From an uncultured euryarchaeote (GTDB lineage: Archaea > Thermoplasmatota > Poseidoniia > Poseidoniales > Poseidoniaceae), in the NCBI GenBank assembly GCA_937915175.1, contig CALDNA010000066.1, forward strand, positions 2,994-66,993: a DNA stretch of 64,000 nucleotides, in the 5' to 3' direction. The position numbers and the translations under genes are program-made. Below the pieces are notes generated by a model, which did not search any database, was not told the DNA's origin, and worked only from the letters and a program-made list of their open reading frames with translations. Positions 1,935 through 22,297 of the stretch are shown in pieces. Numbering within the stretch: position 1 is the stretch's first letter; each line of letters begins with the position of its first letter.

Positions 1935-3314
1935 ATGACAGGTACCGATGGTTCTGCTGCTCGCCTCTGGGAACATCCCATCGAAACAGGAGAAGCCCCC
2001 GAAAATGGCGCTACCTTCGACGCCGTTGTCGTCGGTGGAGGCCCTGGTGGATCATCCGCAGCAGGCTATTTGGCCATGGCTGGAAAGAAGGTTTTGTTAA
2101 TCGAAAAAGACGTCTGGCCACGCGACAAAGTGTGCGGTGACGCGGTTGGCGGAAAGTCACTCGGCCATGTTGCTGCGTTGGGCGTCAAGGCCGACCTTGA
2201 AGCGAGCCCGCACTTCCGTGTAACGGGCATTGTGTTCTCTTCCCCCAAGGGCAACAGGGTTCGCGTGCCGCTTCCTGAAGAAGCGGTCGAGCGCCTTGAA
2301 GCAGGTTATGCGCTCCCGCGCGCTCAATTCGACGCCTTGCTGTTTGATCGTTGCCAAGGCATGGTGCGTGAAGCTGGCGGCTCCATTCTACAGGGCGGCG
2401 ATGTTCGCTCCATCCTGTTCGATGACGGAAACGGCGGCGAAGATCCGGGCGAAGGCAGCGGTGATGCTCGCCACGCATCCGGCGTTGTCGTTCGAGTTGG
2501 CGGCCGAAAAGGCGAGGAATTCACCTTCTACACCAAGGAACTCGTTGGCGCTGCTGGCTACCGATGCCCTGTGGCAAAATCGGTGGTCGAATCCAGTTAC
2601 AATGAGCCAATGGTTGACCGAGACCACTACTGTGGCGGTTACCGAGAATACTGGCGCAATGTGAAAGATTGTGGCACCAACACCGGCGATATTGAAATTC
2701 ACTTTGTTGATTCTGTAATTCCTGGTTACTTCTGGCTGTTCCCCGTTTCTGAAGATGTGGTCAACGTTGGCATTGGCATGGTGATGAGCCTGATGGATAA
2801 GCAAAAGAAGAAACTCAAGGCGCTCCAAGCCGATGTAATCGCTAATCATCCTAAGTTCAAAGATCGATTTGTTGACGCAGAAATGATCCCTGGTTCGGCG
2901 AAAGGCTGGCAACTGCCCTTCGGTTCCCCGCGCAAGAAATCTTCCAAGCAGCCTCGTCGCTCAAGCATGAACGGTGTGCGCCTCGTCGGCGATGCGGCGT
3001 CGCTCGTTGATCCGTTCTCAGGCGAGGGCGTCGGAAACGCTCTTGTCACCGGTGAAATTGCAGCACGGCACATTGTGGAGCAGAAGACACCGCTCGACTA
3101 CCAAGATGAGGTGTGGTCGGTGCTCGGCCCAGAATTGATCAATTCCTACAGAATGCAAAAGCTCAGTCGCCGCTCATGGTTGCTGAACTGGTTCATGGGC
3201 AAGGCAGAGCGAAAGCCGGCGTTGCAGGAAATAATGACAGAAATGATCGCCAGCAAGGAAGCACAAGAGGACCTCCACTCCCCTTGGTTCATGATGAAAA
3301 CATTGTTCTTCTGA
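1935..3314 (+). CDS. Geranylgeranyl reductase family FAD-dependent oxidoreductase (archaeal lipid saturation type)
   Basis: FDAVVVGGGPGGSSAAGYLAMAGKKVLLIEK dinucleotide-binding motif followed by RDKVCGDAV. VRLVGDAASLVDPFSGEGVGNAL matches the GDAAG-x-P-x-x-GEG block. Contains an acidic Gly-rich insert (DDGNGGEDPGEGSGD). Confidence 0.8.
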   Translation: MTGTDGSAARLWEHPIETGEAPENGATFDAVVVGGGPGGSSAAGYLAMAGKKVLLIEKDVWPRDKVCGDAVGGKSLGHVAALGVKADLEASPHFRVTGIVFSSPKGNRVRVPLPEEAVERLEAGYALPRAQFDALLFDRCQGMVREAGGSILQGGDVRSILFDDGNGGEDPGEGSGDARHASGVVVRVGGRKGEEFTFYTKELVGAAGYRCPVAKSVVESSYNEPMVDRDHYCGGYREYWRNVKDCGTNTGDIEIHFVDSVIPGYFWLFPVSEDVVNVGIGMVMSLMDKQKKKLKALQADVIANHPKFKDRFVDAEMIPGSAKGWQLPFGSPRKKSSKQPRRSSMNGVRLVGDAASLVDPFSGEGVGNALVTGEIAARHIVEQKTPLDYQDEVWSVLGPELINSYRMQKLSRRSWLLNWFMGKAERKPALQEIMTEMIASKEAQEDLHSPWFMMKTLFF

Positions 3315-3323
3315 GGTGATTCA

Positions 3324-4112
3324 ATGGATGCAGGCCTCGAAGGAATCGAAGCAGTGTTCCTTGATTTGGACGGCACAATTTACCTCGGTGGAGCGTTGAT
3401 TCCTGGCGCTTTGGAGTTTCTCGACCGATGCGAAGAACAGGGTGTTGCTCGATACTTTTTATCCAACAATTCAAGCCGATCCGTCACACAATACTTGAAA
3501 AAATTGCAAGCGTTTGGCATTCCAGCAGCCGCAGAAGACGTGTTGCTTTCAACGCATGATTTGCTTTCATGGCTCGCCCAAGAAGGCATCACTGAAACAT
3601 GGACGATCGGTACGACTGGCATGAGGGATATGATGGAAGGGGCAGGGATTTCGACGCGTTCGAACACGCCCCAATACGTCGTTCTTGGCTATGATACCGA
3701 AATCGATTATGAAAAAATAGCGACAGGGAGCATACACTTGCATGCAGGCGTTCCGCTTGTCGCAAGCCACCCCGATATGGTCTGCCCGTCGCCTGACGGT
3801 GGCTTGCCTGATGTCGGCGCGTACCTGGCCATGCTGAAAGCCACAACAGGCGTCGACCCAGTTCACATCACGGGCAAGCCAAACGCAGGCATGATTCTGC
3901 ATAAGATCGAAGCGTTGGGGCTTGACCCCGCCAAATGCGCCATGGTTGGCGACCGACTTTACACCGACATCGCCATGGCCACAAGGGCTGGGTGCGTCGG
4001 CGTGCTGGTGCTCTCTGGTGAAGCGACGCGCCAAGATGTGGCGGCGCTTCGTGAAGGGGCTGAACAGCAACCAACGTTGATTGTTGAGAGCGTAGACGAA
4101 TTATTGCGGTGA
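3324..4112 (+). CDS. HAD-superfamily subfamily IIA phosphatase (NagD-like sugar phosphatase)
   Basis: HAD motif I FLDLDGTIYLGG, motif III GKPN, motif IV MVGDRLYTDI. Starts 10 nt after the upstream gene. Confidence 0.8.
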   Translation: MDAGLEGIEAVFLDLDGTIYLGGALIPGALEFLDRCEEQGVARYFLSNNSSRSVTQYLKKLQAFGIPAAAEDVLLSTHDLLSWLAQEGITETWTIGTTGMRDMMEGAGISTRSNTPQYVVLGYDTEIDYEKIATGSIHLHAGVPLVASHPDMVCPSPDGGLPDVGAYLAMLKATTGVDPVHITGKPNAGMILHKIEALGLDPAKCAMVGDRLYTDIAMATRAGCVGVLVLSGEATRQDVAALREGAEQQPTLIVESVDELLR

Positions 4113-15970: not shown

Positions 15971-16070
15971 CGAGATGGGCGACTCGCAAACCCAACTTAA
16001 ACGCGCTGGCGCGCCTTATCCACTCAATTCAAGCGCGAGATTGACAAAGTTTGAGGCTGTAACAGGTATT

Positions 16071-19000
16071 ATGCGGCGGGCTCTGGTGATGGTGATGCTG
16101 CTGTTTTTGCCAGCAGTGAGCGCCATTATCACACCAGGTTTTATCGAGGAACAAAGCCAAGATGTGCGCCCCAGTGAGATGGTTATTGAGCTCGACAATG
16201 GTGTTTGGACGCACCAACGCTGGGCTGAACTGGGTGCCGCAGGCGTCACGCCGCTTCGCGTTCTTTCCCCAACCCAACTTCTAGCGTGGGGTCTTGCTTC
16301 CGATGTGAGCGAGGGTTTCACGAACCACCCCGCGCCAGATGCGTCTTGGCGGGGAGGTTTGAACGGCATGGGGCCATTGACAGGCGAGAGCGTCAGGATC
16401 CTCATTGAGCCCCGGCTCCCTAGCGATGCATACCTCGATCTTCGTACCCACCTGTCGACGCTTGGCGTTGTGATCGGCGCTTCCTATGCGCCATCACCAC
16501 TCGCCCACGTGGAAGAAGTCGTTTGGCCCGATCAATTGAATCTTAATCACCTTCTCAGCATAGACGGCATTTTGTGGATTGAGCCGGTGCTGGAGACACA
16601 GGCAAGAAACATACAATCTGCCTCGTTAATGCAGCATGGATCGTTGACCAAGCACCCTGCTTGGCAATTGGGCATCAACGGGGCTGGCGTCGTGGTGGGT
16701 TTGGCTGACTCGGGCCTGGATGCCGACCACGCTTGCTTCCGCAACGCAACCGTTGCCGCAAGCGTTGGCAGCGAGGGCGAGAACGGAACGGATTTGGTTG
16801 GGACCCCAAGCCAAGATCATCGTAAAATCTTGATTTTGAACACCACAATTGATTCGGGAGACACTCAAGGTCATGCTGATTACAGGCACGGAACCCATGT
16901 TGCAGGCACGCTGTCATGCTTCAACGTCGACGATGAGCGCAACGGTCTCAAGCCATCGAATGGTTCAGCGCTCGCTCACGGCACCATGCTCGTGTTCCAA
17001 GACATTGTTTCCGAAGACGGTTGGGTGGCTCCGGATGTCGATGATCTGCTGGTTGAGGCAGGTTTGGGTGGTGCTGTGATCCATTCGAATTCATGGGGCG
17101 ACGACACCACTGCTTACACTGCAAGAACTTCTGACTTTGATGCATGGGCGCTGGCCATGCCTTGGTCGTTAGCCTTCATCGCCCCAGGCAACACGGGCTC
17201 GAGCCTGCTTGAGCCTGCGAACGGGCGAAACGTTGCTGCAATTGGAGCCTCAATGAAATCAGAAGATCTGCAACGCTGGTCCGCTTCTTCAATCGGGCCG
17301 ACAGAAGCAGAAACCAACGGAATCTTTGCTTTAGCAGTTGGCGCGTCGATTCAATCGGCAAAGGCTGACAATTTACCCCAGTCCTACAACAGCGCGTTGA
17401 GAACCTCGACCGGCACGAGCATGGCGACCCCGGGGGCGGCGGGCATTGCTGCTCTGATTCAGCAACTCGTAGAAGAGGGGTGGGTTTCCGGCCAAGAGCC
17501 TCGCATCAATGCTTCCATGGCCTCCCAAATCCCTGCATGGGACGAGGAAATCAATGCGAATTCCACTGTTTCTGTTGGCCAAGGGTTTACCCCCTCGGGC
17601 CCAATGCTACGGGCGTTGTTGGCCCTCTCAACCACTCAGCTCTCGCAAGCAGAACGCAATGGTGGCGATGGGGGCTATGATCTGCAGAACACCCATGACG
17701 GTTGGGGCCAGTTGAACCTCTCGGAGTTGATTGATTTTTCAGAAATCGCTGATGAGTTGGCACAAGGCCATGCTTCCCCAGCGGACAACATTTGGATTCA
17801 CGATGCCTATCGATTGGTGGATGAGACCCCCGATGAATGGCTGGCTGCACGACAAGGCGATGATGGCCCCCTTGAGAATTTGATGGCTGAGCCGTGGAAT
17901 GGGAGCGGCGCTGTTGGGCCGTTTCTGCAGACTGGGGAGACTTGGATTCAGCGATTCACGATCGAATCTGGAGCAGATTTGGATGCGCGCATGGCCCACC
18001 TCGCTTCACCGGAGCCAACGGCTGTCAATGATTTACAACTCGTCGCCCGACTTTCCGACGGGCGCATTGGCGTAAGTGGCGTTTCCAACAGCGACGGGAG
18101 TGCCACTTTGTTTTACAACAGCACTGACCTTGACAACACAACGGTGTTTACAGCGACCAATGAAACCACGCACGGGTTGCGCATTGATGCTGCATCTCTG
18201 GACGGGGTCGAGTGGGTTGAAATCGAAGTCCGGGCGCGGTTTGTAGCCCCAGGCAACATTGTTGGTGGCGTCGGTTTGGACGGCACTCGCACTGGGTTTG
18301 CTCTCGCTCTCAAAGGCGTAATTCGCGACGCTCAAGACTGGAGTGACGCCGATCGTGATGGGGTTGTAAACATCGAAGATGAATGTCCAAATCAAAACGC
18401 CGAAGGATGGGATGAAAACAACGATGGATGCTTAGATGATGACGATCAAGACGGCGTGACTAACAACCTCGATGAATGCCCGGACACCAACGCATCGCAG
18501 TACGACAGCGATTCAAACGGATGCATTGATGATACAGATGGCGATGGTGTTGATGATCTTCTGGATGTGTGTGTTACGGGCCAAATTGACGCACTTTGGC
18601 CAGTCAATAGCGTGGGATGTCGTCCGATTGATGTAAGTCCTGAAATTAGCGATGTTGTTGGCCCTCCGAACGCCTTTGAATGGGCTGGCGAACTCACCGT
18701 TCGCTGGTCTGCGATTGACGAAGATGGTGATGCCTTTGTCACCGGGGCCCAGGTGATGGTTCTCCCCTCTCAATCCAATTCAAGCGAATACAGCATAGCC
18801 ACTTGCGAACTCAACTCAACCTTGGGAGTGTTGTTTGAATGCACATGGAACGCCACATCGAGCCTTCCTCTGTGGAACATTGCAGAAAGTCAGCTTCGAA
18901 TAGACGTGTATGTTCAATCCTCGAACGCCTCACCTGAAGGGAATAACGATCGAATCCTAATACAAACAAGCAATCGATTTAGCGCCAAATACGATGACCC

Positions 19001-19229
19001 ACTTGAGGAAACTAAGCCACAACCTCCTGAAGATTCACAAGGCGCGGGTGCCCAAACAAGAGCGCTGTTCTGGGGCGTTATGGGTGTGGTGATGGTGGGG
19101 CTCATCCTCTACCGAATTGGAGCGCAGACCCTCCGCCCTGAAGAAGAGAAGACGATCCCACACCCCTCTGAATCAGATGATGGGGTGCGTTCATCCTCTC
19201 TCGTTGAAAACAAGGATTATCAGCGCTAA
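16071..19229 (+). CDS. Secreted subtilisin-family (S8) serine protease with TSP3-like calcium-binding repeats and C-terminal TM anchor
   Basis: Catalytic D/H/S blocks VVVGLADSGLDADH, HGTHVAGT and GTSMATPGAAGIAAL. Signal peptide MRRALVMVMLLFLPAVSA. C-terminal helix LFWGVMGVVMVGLILY. ORF 15975..19229 trimmed. Confidence 0.85.
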   Translation: MRRALVMVMLLFLPAVSAIITPGFIEEQSQDVRPSEMVIELDNGVWTHQRWAELGAAGVTPLRVLSPTQLLAWGLASDVSEGFTNHPAPDASWRGGLNGMGPLTGESVRILIEPRLPSDAYLDLRTHLSTLGVVIGASYAPSPLAHVEEVVWPDQLNLNHLLSIDGILWIEPVLETQARNIQSASLMQHGSLTKHPAWQLGINGAGVVVGLADSGLDADHACFRNATVAASVGSEGENGTDLVGTPSQDHRKILILNTTIDSGDTQGHADYRHGTHVAGTLSCFNVDDERNGLKPSNGSALAHGTMLVFQDIVSEDGWVAPDVDDLLVEAGLGGAVIHSNSWGDDTTAYTARTSDFDAWALAMPWSLAFIAPGNTGSSLLEPANGRNVAAIGASMKSEDLQRWSASSIGPTEAETNGIFALAVGASIQSAKADNLPQSYNSALRTSTGTSMATPGAAGIAALIQQLVEEGWVSGQEPRINASMASQIPAWDEEINANSTVSVGQGFTPSGPMLRALLALSTTQLSQAERNGGDGGYDLQNTHDGWGQLNLSELIDFSEIADELAQGHASPADNIWIHDAYRLVDETPDEWLAARQGDDGPLENLMAEPWNGSGAVGPFLQTGETWIQRFTIESGADLDARMAHLASPEPTAVNDLQLVARLSDGRIGVSGVSNSDGSATLFYNSTDLDNTTVFTATNETTHGLRIDAASLDGVEWVEIEVRARFVAPGNIVGGVGLDGTRTGFALALKGVIRDAQDWSDADRDGVVNIEDECPNQNAEGWDENNDGCLDDDDQDGVTNNLDECPDTNASQYDSDSNGCIDDTDGDGVDDLLDVCVTGQIDALWPVNSVGCRPIDVSPEISDVVGPPNAFEWAGELTVRWSAIDEDGDAFVTGAQVMVLPSQSNSSEYSIATCELNSTLGVLFECTWNATSSLPLWNIAESQLRIDVYVQSSNASPEGNNDRILIQTSNRFSAKYDDPLEETKPQPPEDSQGAGAQTRALFWGVMGVVMVGLILYRIGAQTLRPEEEKTIPHPSESDDGVRSSSLVENKDYQR
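18345..18580 (+). repeat. Three thrombospondin type 3-like D-x-D-x-D-G-x-x-D-x-x-D-x-C repeats inside the S8 protease
   Basis: DADRDGVVNIEDECPN, DDDQDGVTNNLDECPD and DTDGDGVDDLLDVC, interleaved with DENNDGCLD and DSDSNGCID. Confidence 0.65.
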
Positions 19230-19330
19230 GTGGCCCGAACGGGCTTGATGGGGCACCTGTATTGACAAGGTGAACCTTGAAGGGTGGTGGCACCCTCGCC
19301 AGCATGTCCGCAATGCGGACGGTGAATAAA

Positions 19331-20335
19331 ATGAGTGACCGCTTGTATGTTGGAATTGACCTAGGCACCTACCAATCGACTATCTCTTCGAGTGCTGGCG
19401 TAAGCCACACCATCGAAACCGTAGTTGGACGACCAAAAGACCCCGTCGCACGAAACTTCCTCGGCCGAGATGTGCTGTTTGGAAACGATGCGCTCAAGAA
19501 CAAACTCGCTTGCAACCTTTACCGGCCAATGGCCGCAGGTGTTGCTCAGGACGACGAAGCAAATTTGGCAGCTGCCAAGGCGTTCGTTTCCCACCTCCTT
19601 GAAACCGTTGACCCTGAAGAATTCGACGAAGTGTTCGGCGTCATCTGCTCGCCAAGCCACGTTTCATTCACGGACAAGAGCAACCTCGTTGCAACCCTCC
19701 GTGGCCAAGTGAACGCCATCATGGTCGTCACTGAACCCTTTGCAACCGCATACGGCATCGGTGAAATCGCAAGTTCAATTGTCGTCGACATCGGCGCAGG
19801 TACGACCGACATCGCACGCATCTACGGGACCTTCCCAACTGATGAAGACCAAGTCACCATCCAAGAGGCTGGCGACTGGCTCGACAACGAACTCATGAGC
19901 CTGATCCGCAAGAAGTTCACAGGCGCTCAAGTCACAAAGGACATGGTTCGCAAGTGGAAGGAAGAGGTTTCCTACGTTGGCGGCGAAGTTCGCGAAGCAA
20001 CTGTGGAGTTGTCCGTTGAAGGAAAGAAGCAAGTTGTCGACATCGGCGACTTGGTGGTTCAAGCCTGCGAAATGATTGTTCCAAAGATCGGAAACGCAAT
20101 CAAGCGAATCGTGGCTGGCGCTGACCCAGAATACCAACCTGTTCTCCGCAACAACATCATCCTCTCTGGTGGAGGCTCTCTTATCGACGGTATTGCAGCA
20201 CGCATGACCGATGAAATCTCCGATATTGGCGACGTTACCGTTTGGTGCGTTGAAGACCCAATTAACGCAGTGGCAAACGGTGCTTTGCAACTCGCTGGCG
20301 AAATGCCAGACGATATGTACACCGCCATCAACTGA
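19331..20335 (+). CDS. Actin-superfamily ATPase, MamK-like (MreB/MamK clade)
   Basis: Phosphate-1 YVGIDLGTYQS, VVGRPKDPVARNFLGRDVLFGNDAL, VVTEPFATAYG, phosphate-2 IVVDIGAGTTDIARI, EDQVTIQEAG, ADPEYQ, adenosine motif IILSGGGSLIDGIA and VEDPINAVANGAL. GGTGA lies 6 nt upstream of the ATG at 19331. Confidence 0.8.
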   Translation: MSDRLYVGIDLGTYQSTISSSAGVSHTIETVVGRPKDPVARNFLGRDVLFGNDALKNKLACNLYRPMAAGVAQDDEANLAAAKAFVSHLLETVDPEEFDEVFGVICSPSHVSFTDKSNLVATLRGQVNAIMVVTEPFATAYGIGEIASSIVVDIGAGTTDIARIYGTFPTDEDQVTIQEAGDWLDNELMSLIRKKFTGAQVTKDMVRKWKEEVSYVGGEVREATVELSVEGKKQVVDIGDLVVQACEMIVPKIGNAIKRIVAGADPEYQPVLRNNIILSGGGSLIDGIAARMTDEISDIGDVTVWCVEDPINAVANGALQLAGEMPDDMYTAIN

Positions 20336-20428
20336 GCACGGTCATCCTGAAAGGGTGCAGAACCACCCGTGGCGGCGCTGTTCTGACTGGCAAAGTTCAA
20401 GTGCAGTTGAGCGTGGATAGTCACCTGT

Positions 20429-21694
20429 ATGACAATCGACTCGTCTGGAACAAGCGGTATTCGCCGACTCGATGACACCAGTGGTGACGAACGAGCAGCC
20501 CTTGAGGGGATGCTGAAAGGATACCCTGTTGAACAACTCGTAGAAGAGGTACTCATCGCTTGGCAAGAGCTCGCTGCTCGCAATGAAGAGATGGTTTCCG
20601 TAAAGCAACGGTTGCGCGTTCTCGAATTGGATTTGGCGGAACGAGAAGACATGGTCGCACCCGAAGTCGCCCGCCTCAATCAAGCCGAAGCAAGTCTACA
20701 AGAAAGCGAAGCAAAAATCATCCACATTGAACGTCTATTGAGCGATGCTCGAGAAGAACTGGCAAGCCAGCAATCTTCAATTTCCCAAGAGGAACGAGAT
20801 GCGATGTCGGCAGAAAACTCACAGTTGCGAGATCTCTCCATTCAACAAGACGATGTTATCGCTGAACTGGAAGGCCGCATCGTCCAGATGGTCGACGCTT
20901 TAGAGCGGGCTGCAGAAGCCGGACTCACCTCGGTCACAGCGGAAGAAGTTCGCAGCCTCAAATCACAGCTCGATGCCGCCCTTATGCAGAACGAAGCCGA
21001 GCAAGCAGGAAACAAAGCGCTCGAAGAAGAACGTCAACGCCTCCGGGACATCGCAGATCGCCTCCGCGGGTTACTGGATGCCCGGGACGGTCGACTTGGT
21101 GAGCTTGAAGAACAACTTGAGCGGGTCATGCAAGGCCCTCGTTCCGTTTCCGCAGAACACGACTACCTCGTTGAACAAATTGAAGAATTGAAGCGACGTT
21201 TGCTCGAGCGAAACAGAGAGTATGAGTCACTACGACGCCGTGAACGACGCCTTCACAACGATGTGTTTGAGCGCGACGAGCGCGTGCAACAGATCACCCT
21301 CACCCTTACCGATATGGAGGCGGCATTGCAAGACCGCACCGCTGAACTGCGAGAACTGGAAGGTCAACGTGAATCCATGACCCATGAATTGGATTCCGTA
21401 CGCCGTGGAGAACGGACCCGAGAAGTCGTTGGACGGGTGTTTGCAGATTCGCTGTCGCTCGTTAGAACGCATGACGCTCGTGAGGCAAAACGAGAAGCAT
21501 ACAGCAACGAGCCCGACAAAACTCGAACCCTTTCAACACCCGACCCAAGCGACATGGCAGATCTTGCCGAAGGCGGTCGCGTCGAACTTTCCGTCAGTGA
21601 ACAAGAAATCACACCCGGCATGGACGTCGATGGTGTGCGCCCCCCATCTCCAGGTGGAACCGGCGACCCTGTGCTCTTTGAAGACGAGGACTGA
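20429..21694 (+). CDS. Acidic coiled-coil protein (421 aa), function unknown
   Basis: Roughly 300 aa of E/R/L/Q-rich heptad-like sequence (LRVLELDLAEREDM..., LEEERQRLRDIADRLRGLLD..., IEELKRRLLERNREYESLRRRERRL). Ends in a disordered acidic C-terminus (VLFEDED). Confidence 0.6.
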   Translation: MTIDSSGTSGIRRLDDTSGDERAALEGMLKGYPVEQLVEEVLIAWQELAARNEEMVSVKQRLRVLELDLAEREDMVAPEVARLNQAEASLQESEAKIIHIERLLSDAREELASQQSSISQEERDAMSAENSQLRDLSIQQDDVIAELEGRIVQMVDALERAAEAGLTSVTAEEVRSLKSQLDAALMQNEAEQAGNKALEEERQRLRDIADRLRGLLDARDGRLGELEEQLERVMQGPRSVSAEHDYLVEQIEELKRRLLERNREYESLRRRERRLHNDVFERDERVQQITLTLTDMEAALQDRTAELRELEGQRESMTHELDSVRRGERTREVVGRVFADSLSLVRTHDAREAKREAYSNEPDKTRTLSTPDPSDMADLAEGGRVELSVSEQEITPGMDVDGVRPPSPGGTGDPVLFEDED

Positions 21695-21703
21695 GGTGAC
21701 GCG

Positions 21704-22297
21704 TTGGAGCCAATCGGCGGCCTCGTTGCAATTTCACTGGGCCTCGGGCTTGCAGCTGCAAGTGGCTTTCGCGTGTTCCTCCCCCCTATGCTCCTAAGTG
21801 GAGCGATTAACATCGGAATGGTCAGCCCTGCTGGGCAATTGGCACTGCTTGATGGATGGGGGGCGTTTGGAGTCCTCTTTGTTGCTGTGATCTTAGAAAT
21901 CGGCTCTTACCTCATCCCTTGGTTGGACAACCTGCTGGATGTTGTTGCCACACCTGCTGCTATGTTGGCGGGCATTGGCATGATGGGTTCGGTTTTAGGC
22001 GCTGAAATGGAATTGGACCCGATTGTTCAATGGAGTATTGCTGCAGTTGGTGGTGGAGGTGTTGCCGGAACTGTTCAAGCAGGAACGGTTGCGACTCGCG
22101 CTGTTTCAACTGGAACGACAGGGGGTCTTGCGAATCCAATCGTTTCAGTGTTCGAAGCGATCATGGCGGTGATTGTTACGCTGCTTGCGCTATTGGCACC
22201 GCTGCTTGGCTTAGTGCTCGTCATCGTCGGGATGGCGTACGCTGGGAAGATGATAGCCAAGCGAAAGAGTAAAACTTCGATTCCCGGTTCAGTTTAG
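21704..22297 (+). CDS. DUF4126-like integral membrane protein
   Basis: GLGLAAASGFRVFLPPMLLSG, IPWLDNLLDVVATPAAMLAG and a Gly-rich loop (GGGGVAGTVQAGTV). About five helices. TTG start 10 nt after the upstream stop. Confidence 0.5.
   Translation: MEPIGGLVAISLGLGLAAASGFRVFLPPMLLSGAINIGMVSPAGQLALLDGWGAFGVLFVAVILEIGSYLIPWLDNLLDVVATPAAMLAGIGMMGSVLGAEMELDPIVQWSIAAVGGGGVAGTVQAGTVATRAVSTGTTGGLANPIVSVFEAIMAVIVTLLALLAPLLGLVLVIVGMAYAGKMIAKRKSKTSIPGSV

Follow-up and report, generated by a model that had tools for sequence, protein, structure and literature searches.

Why would a planktonic archaeon of Marine Group II (MGII) encode an actin that resembles MamK of the magnetosome, and does this actin act together with the products of the genes that follow it? 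The question is raised by three consecutive genes on one strand of a 64,000-nucleotide (nt) stretch of contig CALDNA010000066.1 (assembly GCA_937915175.1, Poseidoniaceae), which will be referred to as the window. A preliminary description of this DNA had listed them as genes for a MamK-like actin (gene 1), an acidic coiled-coil protein reminiscent of MamJ (gene 2) and a DUF4126-like membrane protein (gene 3), and had suggested that the three form a membrane-tethered filament system. The open reading frames (ORFs) are indeed located as described (Table 1), with 93 nt between genes 1 and 2 and 9 nt between genes 2 and 3. Our analysis points to a smaller unit, namely a conserved two-gene chromosomal module of the Poseidoniaceae, in which gene 1 would specify an actin filament and gene 2 a coiled-coil adaptor. 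We consider this reading probable, with substantial room for doubt.

In the surface ocean, MGII is one of the most abundant archaeal groups. To our knowledge, none of its members has been cultured, and we are aware of almost nothing that has been established about their cell biology.

Placement of the actin

Among the NCBIfam models, that of MamK (NF040964) gave the highest score for the gene 1 protein (336.5 bits, E-value 1.5e-100, profile positions 1-330 of 335). It was followed by the models of BeeR (NF053558; 208.9 bits, cut-off 530), MreB (NF010539, 84.2 bits, cut-off 293; TIGR00904, 72.4 bits, cut-off 365.75), salactin (NF053533; 32.3 bits, cut-off 400) and ParM (NF010498; 22.3 bits, cut-off 417). 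The score for the Pfam Salactin model was 27.0 at a cut-off of 27.1, and volactin was represented only by a faint precomputed match. In a phmmer search of the PDB sequences, three MamK entries came first with 217 bits over residues 3-330 of gene 1, BeeR (8r2n) was second-best with 132 bits, and MreB reached 52 bits. A BLASTP alignment with MamK of strain AMB-1 showed 35% identity with one gap in 329 columns. Every actin motif quoted in the preliminary description (VVGRPKD, VVTEPF, VVDIGAGTTDI, EDQVT, PEYQ, GGGS and VEDP) is present in gene 1 and aligned with the same motif of MamK; the phosphate-1, phosphate-2 and adenosine motifs are intact, as is the catalytic Glu of VVxEPF. From 25 sequences, AlphaFold2 produced a model with a mean predicted local distance difference test score (pLDDT) of 90.3. 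Its best Foldseek match was the filament form of MamK (5ljv, chain 5ljv_A; template modelling scores 0.93/0.96, root-mean-square deviation 1.5 Å, E-value 1e-37), followed by BeeR (8e-34) and by MreB and eukaryotic actins (near 1e-24). Judged by sequence, profile and predicted fold, the gene 1 product appears to be an actin-fold ATPase that is nearest to MamK and not to MreB. The earlier preference for MamK over MreB, ParM and crenactin is thereby borne out, but only in a broad sense, as will be seen below.

Annotation pipelines name the homologs of this actin either 'rod shape-determining protein MreB' (JGI, NCBI) or hypothetical, and gene 1 exceeds the gathering cut-off of Pfam MreB_Mbl (88.4 versus 27 bits), a model that also covers MamK-like proteins. 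Could gene 1 then be a canonical MreB that determines rod shape? Both NCBIfam MreB models remain far below their own cut-offs and below MamK, and the same ranking was obtained with the PDB sequences and in the fold comparison, where the E-value for MreB is about 13 orders of magnitude weaker than that for MamK. MreB guides a peptidoglycan machinery that archaea do not possess. Moreover, neither mreC nor mreD was detected among the flanking genes scanned. As the hosts are archaea and MGII cells are cocci of ~0.7 µm (PMC6864105), the cellular role cannot be an MreB-style guidance of rod shape or wall synthesis. We assign hardly any probability to the canonical-MreB reading, which is effectively refuted.

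Since MamK ranks first in both the family scores and the structural comparison, a further possibility is that gene 1 encodes a true MamK, which would organise magnetosomes or a similar mineral organelle. However, gene 1 stays below the curated cut-off of the MamK model, which is 400 bits. With the same model, MamK of AMB-1 and two close representatives scored 472-539 bits, other (bacterial) MamK-like proteins 371-420 bits, and the Poseidoniales proteins 330-336 bits (329.8 bits for their representative P0241). In a neighbour-joining tree of 76 sequences (100 bootstraps; a distance method only), AMB-1 MamK grouped with P0313 and P0287 (bootstrap 73-99) to the exclusion of the window protein. 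No CDF or Mam-type gene was found among the Pfam-scanned ORFs of the window, the related loci and the 17-kb flanks, in agreement with the earlier statement that the window contains no magnetosome genes; a CDF gene is present in the cluster around the actin P0272, described below. Relatives of gene 1 are also common in non-magnetotactic lineages. Because it lies below the NCBI cut-off, outside the true-MamK clade and away from any magnetosome cluster, gene 1 does not appear to encode a bona fide magnetosome MamK. This reading is largely refuted, and we regard its residual probability as minimal.

To identify closer relatives, 1.84 billion representatives clustered at 50% identity were searched exhaustively. 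The Poseidoniales actins fall into a single cluster at this level, whose representative P0241 is 83% identical to gene 1. The nearest outsiders share 44-47% identity with gene 1 (288-325 bits) and are long proteins of 523-1232 amino acids (aa) with a C-terminal actin domain, one of which is from candidate division KSB1 (MBN1348044.1). A third layer of stand-alone proteins with 37-42% identity comes from ANME-2/Methanosarcinales, Gemmatimonadota, Nitrospira, Verrucomicrobiota and Acidobacteriota. In the tree, the window protein and P0241 form a long branch of their own (bootstrap 100). No deeper node exceeds 30, and the nominal sister of the Poseidoniales branch is BeeR, with a bootstrap value of 13. 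These comparisons suggest that gene 1 belongs to an isolated, Poseidoniales-specific subfamily within a broad MamK/BeeR radiation, and that the Poseidoniales actin was probably acquired long ago from bacteria.

Conservation of the actin and coiled-coil genes

When one genome of each GTDB species was scanned, 295 were found to encode a relative of the actin. The best 80 of these 295 loci were analysed; their actins are 87-99% identical to gene 1 and their genomes are labelled Poseidoniaceae, Poseidoniales or generic. Nine further loci with 83-85% actin identity were obtained from contig look-ups. At the 90% identity level, the actin is represented by more than 120 clusters with 84-99% identity to gene 1. 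In all 89 related loci that extend far enough, the actin gene is followed on the same strand, after 93-105 nt, by an ortholog of gene 2. These orthologs have 421-426 aa and are 71-99% identical to gene 2 of the window. As had been proposed, the coiled-coil gene is a conserved, co-oriented neighbour of the actin gene, and the presence of the pair is near-universal in the sampled MGII genomes.

The GC content of these loci ranges from 40 to 59%, and their four-fold-degenerate sites are close to random or saturated (identity 0.24-0.57). Over loci with near-saturated four-fold sites, the actins still shared 87-97% and the gene 2 proteins 74-95% of their amino acids, which argues that both are real genes under strong purifying selection. 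The concern that gene 2 may show no coding conservation in relatives can therefore be set aside. Indeed, the persistence of the actin at 83-99% identity despite saturated synonymous sites and such differences in GC content implies an important function.

Three assemblies deserve comment. A 4.1-kb contig (L041; DLTU01000102.1) in a metagenome-assembled genome (MAG) labelled 'Candidatus Microthrix sp. UBA7828' carries a Poseidoniales actin gene (89% identity) and gene 2, and is almost certainly a mis-binned archaeal contig in a bacterial MAG. Two MAGs contain two contigs with the pair, namely UBA433 (L002 and L006, with actins 99% and 98% identical to that of the window) and ARS60 (L014 and L015, 95% on both). 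Strain mixtures are a more likely explanation for these than true paralogs.

Properties of the coiled-coil protein

Gene 2 had been described as a strongly acidic, mostly heptad coiled coil with a disordered tail. The protein is acidic, with a net charge of -40, an isoelectric point of 4.58 and -9.5 charges per 100 residues. This is, however, ordinary for the proteome encoded by the window, of which the median is -3.6 per 100 aa and which includes several proteins as acidic as gene 2. In an AlphaFold2 model based on a 10-sequence alignment (pLDDT 74), about 80% of the protein is helical. The helices comprise residues 34-116, 120-163, 171-235 and 242-358, with breaks that coincide with the conserved sequences AGLTSVTA and QGPRSVSAEHD, and residues 1-16 and 398-421 form disordered ends. 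Coiled-coil regions were called from periodicity statistics together with these helices. Over about residues 197-336, a highly significant hydrophobic periodicity of 3.5 residues continues without a break in register (z-scores of 3.2-7.3 over residues 197-350), and a weaker one was observed over residues 57-112 (2.6-4.8 over residues 57-126). The acidity, the helicity and the disordered tail of the earlier account are thus retained, whereas the heptad signal spans roughly half of the protein and not most of it.

Alignment of 78 distinct orthologs revealed near-invariant blocks at about residues 21-80, 197-280 and 321-346. Two arginine-rich stretches, RRRERRLH and RRGERTREVVGR, are invariant, and the C-terminal tail RPPSPGG(S/T)GDPVLF(D/E)(D/E)ED is conserved within the disordered end.

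Searches for homologs gave little. The gene 2 profile had no match among the PDB sequences, Foldseek returned only meaningless matches for the model (E-values above 1), Pfam at E-values up to 1 yielded only sub-threshold coiled-coil noise (Crescentin rod, SAB, DUF724), and NCBIfam gave only weak similarity to SMC and other coiled-coil proteins. The database matches listed for the orthologs are all close Poseidoniales proteins with at least 71% identity. A hidden Markov model (HMM) built from the 78 orthologs was also run against 150 representative actins, including their N-terminal extensions, and against the ORFs of four non-Poseidoniales loci (L090-L093), which include the genes flanking the actins of KSB1, of a che operon and of ANME-2; the Gemmatimonadota and Acidobacteriota loci, L098 and L099 lay outside this search. 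Nothing significant was found in either set. Gene 2 therefore seems to encode an orphan protein that is predicted to be mostly helical and in part a heptad coiled coil. The proposed resemblance to MamJ, which was assessed by library searches and by the range of acidity rather than by direct alignment with MamJ, is not supported, as it rests on an acidity that is ordinary here and no homology was detected in Pfam, NCBIfam or the PDB.

The slot downstream of gene 2

The third gene had been identified correctly: its product is a polytopic membrane protein with hydrophobic stretches that matches Pfam DUF4126 (PF13548) over profile positions 1-168 of 175, with a score far above the cut-off of 27.5 bits (Table 1). 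We surveyed the 74 loci (the window and 73 related ones) that contain both gene 2 and PcrB. A DUF4126 gene is present in 18 of them. In 39, gene 2 abuts PcrB with a gap of less than 100 nt, and in the remaining 17 the slot is filled by something else, such as a minus-strand peroxiredoxin-like gene, a DCC/DUF393-like gene or unrelated ORFs of roughly 220-570 aa. The distribution of DUF4126 is patchy even among lineages with actins 93-99% identical to that of the window.

These counts bear directly on the suggestion that the DUF4126 protein tethers actin/coiled-coil filaments to the membrane in a three-gene cassette. In the window and the 17 other loci that have it, the DUF4126 gene begins roughly 1-30 nt 3' of gene 2 on the same strand; in the window, its TTG start codon is preceded by a ribosome-binding motif of its own, GAGGTGA (21693-21699). 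Because of this motif and the tight coupling to gene 2, gene 3 is probably co-transcribed with gene 2 in the lineages that have it. Nevertheless, a gene that occurs in only 18 of 74 loci, and that is absent or replaced by unrelated genes in the others, does not provide a general membrane tether. We therefore consider the three-gene cassette quite improbable, and the DUF4126 gene to be an occasional, lineage-specific passenger rather than a conserved part of the module. The region between gene 2 and the convergent PcrB gene (21695-22288 in the window) is an insertion hot spot, as is also seen in loci L003, L033, L036, L041, L044, L059, L061 and L063.

Shared motifs upstream of both genes

A conserved motif, AAGGTGAACCTTGAAG, is located upstream of the actin gene, and the intergenic DNA that flanks it is not conserved. 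A second one, GGCAAAGTTCAAGTGCAGTTGA, precedes gene 2; across 81 distinct intergenic sequences of 97-108 nt, its core positions are at least 90% and its other positions 60-90% conserved. The two are alike, the AAAGTTCAAG-containing motif upstream of gene 2 sharing with the gene 1 motif the pattern G.GAA.(N)TT[GC]AAG.GTGGT. This pattern is absent upstream of the other ~45 genes of the window, by which a general promoter consensus was ruled out. We regard AAGGTGAACCTTGAAG as a candidate promoter (B recognition element/TATA-like) or regulator site and GGCAAAGTTCAAGTGCAGTTGA as a candidate promoter of gene 2 itself. Alternatively stated, the shared motif may be a dedicated promoter or regulator site common to both genes, and the similarity of the two copies suggests that genes 1 and 2 are co-regulated.

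An arrangement in which an actin gene with an upstream DNA motif is followed by the gene for an adaptor resembles parMRC and alfAB. It is thus conceivable that the pair segregates DNA in the manner of ParM, AlfA or salactin, with the actin pushing or pulling chromosomes and gene 2 as a DNA-binding adaptor acting on centromere-like upstream motifs. The two invariant arginine-rich stretches of gene 2 would fit such a function, and salactin, which branches next to MamK in trees, has an effect on the partitioning of DNA in Halobacterium (PMC10746226). On the other hand, the motif occurs in two copies only and does not form an iteron array, gene 2 is a long predicted coiled coil with no recognisable DNA-binding fold, the ParM and salactin models give only 22 and 32 bits, and the locus is not part of a plasmid or virus. 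A DNA-segregation machine of this type is in our judgement unlikely, but still to be reckoned with as a rival.

MamK-like actins in other lineages

The genes that accompany MamK-like actins elsewhere are informative with respect to gene 2. In ANME-2 (L093, 6001-12925), an actin 37% identical to that of the window is followed after 25 nt by a gene for a 1940-aa, E/K-rich, repetitive coiled coil, of which the N-terminus matches the archaellum ArlD/E domain (Arch_fla_DE; 38.8 bits, cut-off 21). This partner also contains a twice-repeated DDLVPVxEGYENFDELxSFF motif. In marine Gemmatimonadota, the MamK-like actin gene precedes a gene for a 178-aa coiled-coil protein. In KSB1 (L090, 8001-14791), a 707-aa protein consists of an N-terminal extension, made up of a coiled coil and an acidic disordered part, fused to a MamK-like domain. 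Downstream of its gene are one for another, free-standing MamK-like actin, three for Roadblock/LC7 proteins, one for a Ras/Arf-like small GTPase and one for an unknown protein of 147 aa, a set that looks like a polarity or cytoskeleton module.

In a further locus (L092), the MamK-like actin P0257 is encoded within a CheA-CheC-CheD...CheC operon and followed by a 291-aa protein (3000-3875). The C-terminus of the latter, MDPSLIFDEDGEE, resembles the gene 2 tail GDPVLFEDED (window 21620-21694), and no such tail was found in any other ORF of the window and the 13 loci scanned with it, 14 sequences in all. It is conceivable that the two tails represent a shared actin-docking peptide.

Around P0272 (L099, 1971-7246), a CDF cation-efflux gene is accompanied by several small ORFs, a pair of neighbouring actin-like genes and one FtsA-like gene. 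This cluster has the look of a genuine magnetosome-type context and is unlike the Poseidoniales locus.

Are genes 1 and 2 functionally linked?

The simplest alternative to a two-gene module is that genes 1 and 2 are neighbours only because of family-wide collinearity. The actin would then act alone or with partners encoded elsewhere, and gene 2 could, for example, be an SMC-like or scaffold protein. Several observations favour this alternative or otherwise weaken the case for a module. Ribosomal L18Ae, the S8 protease, the actin, gene 2, PcrB, the ABC exporter and rhodopsin are collinear in all loci examined. Since the whole neighbourhood of 15 kb is syntenic, adjacency alone is weak evidence of a functional link between the actin and gene 2, and no locus was found in which the pair had been relocated together. 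Gene 2 has weak similarity to SMC and coiled-coil proteins, and each of the two genes seems to have a promoter-like motif of its own. No gene 2 homolog was detected beside the non-Poseidoniales MamK-like actins of L090-L093, so that the case from partners in other lineages is one of analogy only, and in two of the eight non-Poseidoniales contexts (Acidobacteriota and L098) there is no coiled-coil partner. The likeness of the C-terminal tails comes from two lineages only and was noticed after the fact. Lastly, the deep branching order of the actins has bootstrap values below 30 throughout.

Four other observations strengthen the link. The actin gene and gene 2 keep a fixed spacing, although the slot that follows gene 2 is a hot spot of insertion with highly variable contents. 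The upstream motifs of both genes appear similar to each other and to nothing upstream of any other gene in the window. Gene 2 seems far better conserved than would be expected for a generic coiled coil. By analogy, the recurrence of coiled-coil partners beside MamK-like actins of unrelated lineages also speaks for a link. Mere collinearity is in our opinion doubtful as the full explanation, and deserves to be kept in mind as a serious competitor of the two-gene module.

If genes 1 and 2 do form a module, the following mechanism can be envisaged. The actin would most likely bind ATP and polymerise into MamK-type filaments, as suggested by its predicted fold, its intact catalytic motifs and an extreme conservation that is typical of polymer-forming actins. 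The gene 2 protein would be an elongated coiled-coil rod, probably a dimer, and would most likely join the filaments as an adaptor, cross-linker or regulator. Contact would probably be made through the near-invariant, arginine-rich central block of the coiled coil, through the acidic-hydrophobic tail (GDPVLF-DED), or through both. Arcadin-2 attaches to crenactin, and ParR to ParM, by a C-terminal peptide that is bound in the hydrophobic groove of the actin (PMC5173319), and the gene 2 tail could dock into the corresponding groove of the gene 1 actin in the same way. The two genes are likely to be co-regulated via their similar upstream elements. As to the task of such filaments, the positioning, segregation or internal organisation of cargo in a coccoid cell of ~0.7 µm would be our more likely guess.

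A more far-reaching version of this model would be an archaeal cytoskeleton acquired long ago from bacteria of the MamK-like radiation, in which the partner docks by a short C-terminal DPxLxF-DED peptide common to the adaptors of MamK-like actins in unrelated bacteria and archaea, and in which some of these actins are wired to chemotaxis or the archaellum. The latter idea is based on the position of the L092 actin in a che operon and on the ArlD/E domain of the ANME-2 partner. We hold this extended version to be rather unlikely. If true, it would mean that MamK-like filaments are general-purpose positioning tracks well beyond magnetosomes, and this in abundant archaea of the surface ocean.

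Genomic setting and features of the locus

The window represents an ordinary Poseidoniaceae (MGII) chromosome. A Pfam scan of the neighbouring genes identified an S8 subtilase, PcrB/GGGP synthase, an ABC exporter, rhodopsin, an SRP54-type GTPase, FGAM synthase and UvrA. The nearest genome locus is from a Candidatus Poseidoniaceae MAG with 99% actin identity, and the actin of the MG-II assembly CM001443 from 2012 is 97% identical to that of the window. The archaeal context inferred earlier is thus confirmed by PcrB/GGGP synthase, the SRP54-type GTPase and rhodopsin as well as by the closest genomes. The GC content is flat across the region, that of the module being in line with that of its surroundings. 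Relatives of the module were not found on viral contigs, and plasmids gave only weak MreB matches. On these grounds a mobile-element origin was rejected, and the module appears to be chromosomal, not mobile.

The subtilase encoded upstream of the actin (window 15975-19229) has 1084 aa, acidic repeats of the thrombospondin type 3-like kind and a hydrophobic anchor at its C-terminus. Its sequence changes much more rapidly than those of the neighbouring genes, with 32-89% identity across loci in which the actins are 87-99% identical. A large S8 peptidase adjoins a MamK-like actin in two lineages: upstream on the same strand in Poseidoniales (window 15975-20335) and on the opposite strand in Gemmatimonadota (L094, 606-6697). 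This may be a coincidence or the remnant of a shared block.

The start of gene 1 could alternatively be a TTG at position 19277, which would result in an actin of 352 aa. The ATG listed in Table 1 seems better supported, because a conserved Shine-Dalgarno-like GGTGA precedes it by 5-6 nt and because the DNA from the TTG to the ATG has the character of non-coding sequence, in that it contains indels and conserved nucleotide motifs. Among the relatives that diverge most, its length also varies in a manner typical of non-coding DNA. This stretch includes a possible leader hairpin, of which one stem pair changes between GC and CG in 4 of 18 sequences; 78.9% of the cells are paired, versus 32-57% with a slid partner. 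The hairpin is absent from the most divergent loci (L081-L087), and the case for it is weak to moderate.

Table 1. Genes and conserved sequence elements of the locus, with positions in the window.
Feature	Position	Strand	Remarks
Conserved motif AAGGTGAACCTTGAAG	19267-19282	+	49-64 nt upstream of the actin start; at least 90% conserved in 82 distinct upstream sequences
Possible leader hairpin TCCGC-AAT-GCGGA	19307-19319	+	Conserved in most loci
Shine-Dalgarno-like GGTGA	19321-19325	+	Conserved in most loci
Gene 1, predicted MamK-like actin-fold ATPase	19331-20335	+	334 aa; ATG start; profile, PDB, fold and alignment
Conserved intergenic motif GGCAAAGTTCAAGTGCAGTTGA	20389-20410	+	19-40 nt upstream of the gene 2 start
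Gene 2, predicted orphan coiled-coil protein	20429-21694	+	421 aa; orthologs, model and periodicity
Gene 3, DUF4126 membrane protein	21704-22297	+	197 aa; TTG start; Pfam 135.7 bits; 18 of 74 loci

Novelty and significance

No paper on MamK in Poseidoniales was found in the full-text-searchable literature, which does not extend to subscription-only publications. Searches for an MreB or actin of these archaea yielded only unrelated works, none of which, to judge by title and abstract, deals with an MGII or Poseidoniales actin. Likewise, term searches of the published papers on salactin, volactin, BeeR and North Sea MGII archaea retrieved no mention of an MGII or Poseidoniales actin. The earlier view that the system is uncharacterised in planktonic Euryarchaeota/Thermoplasmatota agrees with this searchable record, and we are probably dealing with an undescribed two-part filament system. 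Actin-like filaments with an adaptor are well known as a kind of system. What appears to be new is the actin subfamily, its orphan partner, their near-universal presence in the sampled MGII genomes, and the mis-annotation, by which the actin has been hidden under the misleading label of a rod shape-determining MreB in cocci that have no peptidoglycan.

Together with BeeR and salactin, the gene 1 actin adds weight to the view that MamK is a single specialised branch within a large and mostly uncharacterised radiation of actin-like proteins, which would be recurrently paired with coiled-coil adaptors. As both proteins of the module are small and soluble-looking, heterologous tests are possible without culturing the host.

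Comparison with known systems

MamK of Magnetospirillum (5ljv, 5jyg) is the best match of gene 1 by sequence, profile and fold, with the same nucleotide-binding motifs. MamK itself polymerises in an ATP-dependent manner into filaments that are double-stranded and non-staggered. The cross-strand loop region of MamK, noted in the BeeR paper, is also kept in gene 1 with a gap of one residue. The differences are that the Poseidoniales locus lacks a magnetosome cluster, that the host is an archaeon, and that gene 1 falls below the MamK cut-off and outside the true-MamK clade. In Desulfovibrio magneticus RS-1, coiled-coil Mad proteins work with MamK and Mad28 (PMC12748827). Gene 2 was found by the library searches to be unrelated to MamY, McaA/B and the Mad proteins, as well as to MamJ.

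BeeR, which forms three-stranded tubular filaments in Verrucomicrobiota (8r2n), is like gene 1 a MamK-related actin of non-magnetotactic organisms. Its hallmark is a disordered N-terminal extension of 30-50 residues, whereas the actin core of gene 1 starts at residue 3-5; BeeR also lacks the MamK loop that gene 1 keeps. The long proteins of the KSB1 type are the nearest sequence relatives of gene 1, but they are bacterial and carry their extension fused to the actin, with no homology between this extension and gene 2.

Among the archaea, crenactin and the arcadins of the Thermoproteales arcade cluster offer the parallel of an actin encoded beside a coiled-coil protein, the SMC-like arcadin-4, which associates with crenactin (PMC10869688), and beside arcadin-2, which binds the actin through its C-terminal peptide. 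Crenactin, however, belongs to a eukaryote-like actin family and is linked to rod shape, and its accessory proteins are not homologous to gene 2. Salactin and volactin of the Halobacteria are archaeal actins as well; the first shows dynamic instability and contributes to DNA partitioning, the second takes part in shape transitions. They represent separate subfamilies, the salactin model giving a score of only 32 bits for gene 1. A further archaeal parallel in gene arrangement is the actin of ANME-2/Methanosarcinales (P0261), which is MamK-like, labelled 'rod shape-determining protein' and encoded directly 5' of a coiled-coil gene. It differs from the Poseidoniales pair in that its 1940-aa partner has an Arch_fla_DE domain and is not homologous to gene 2.

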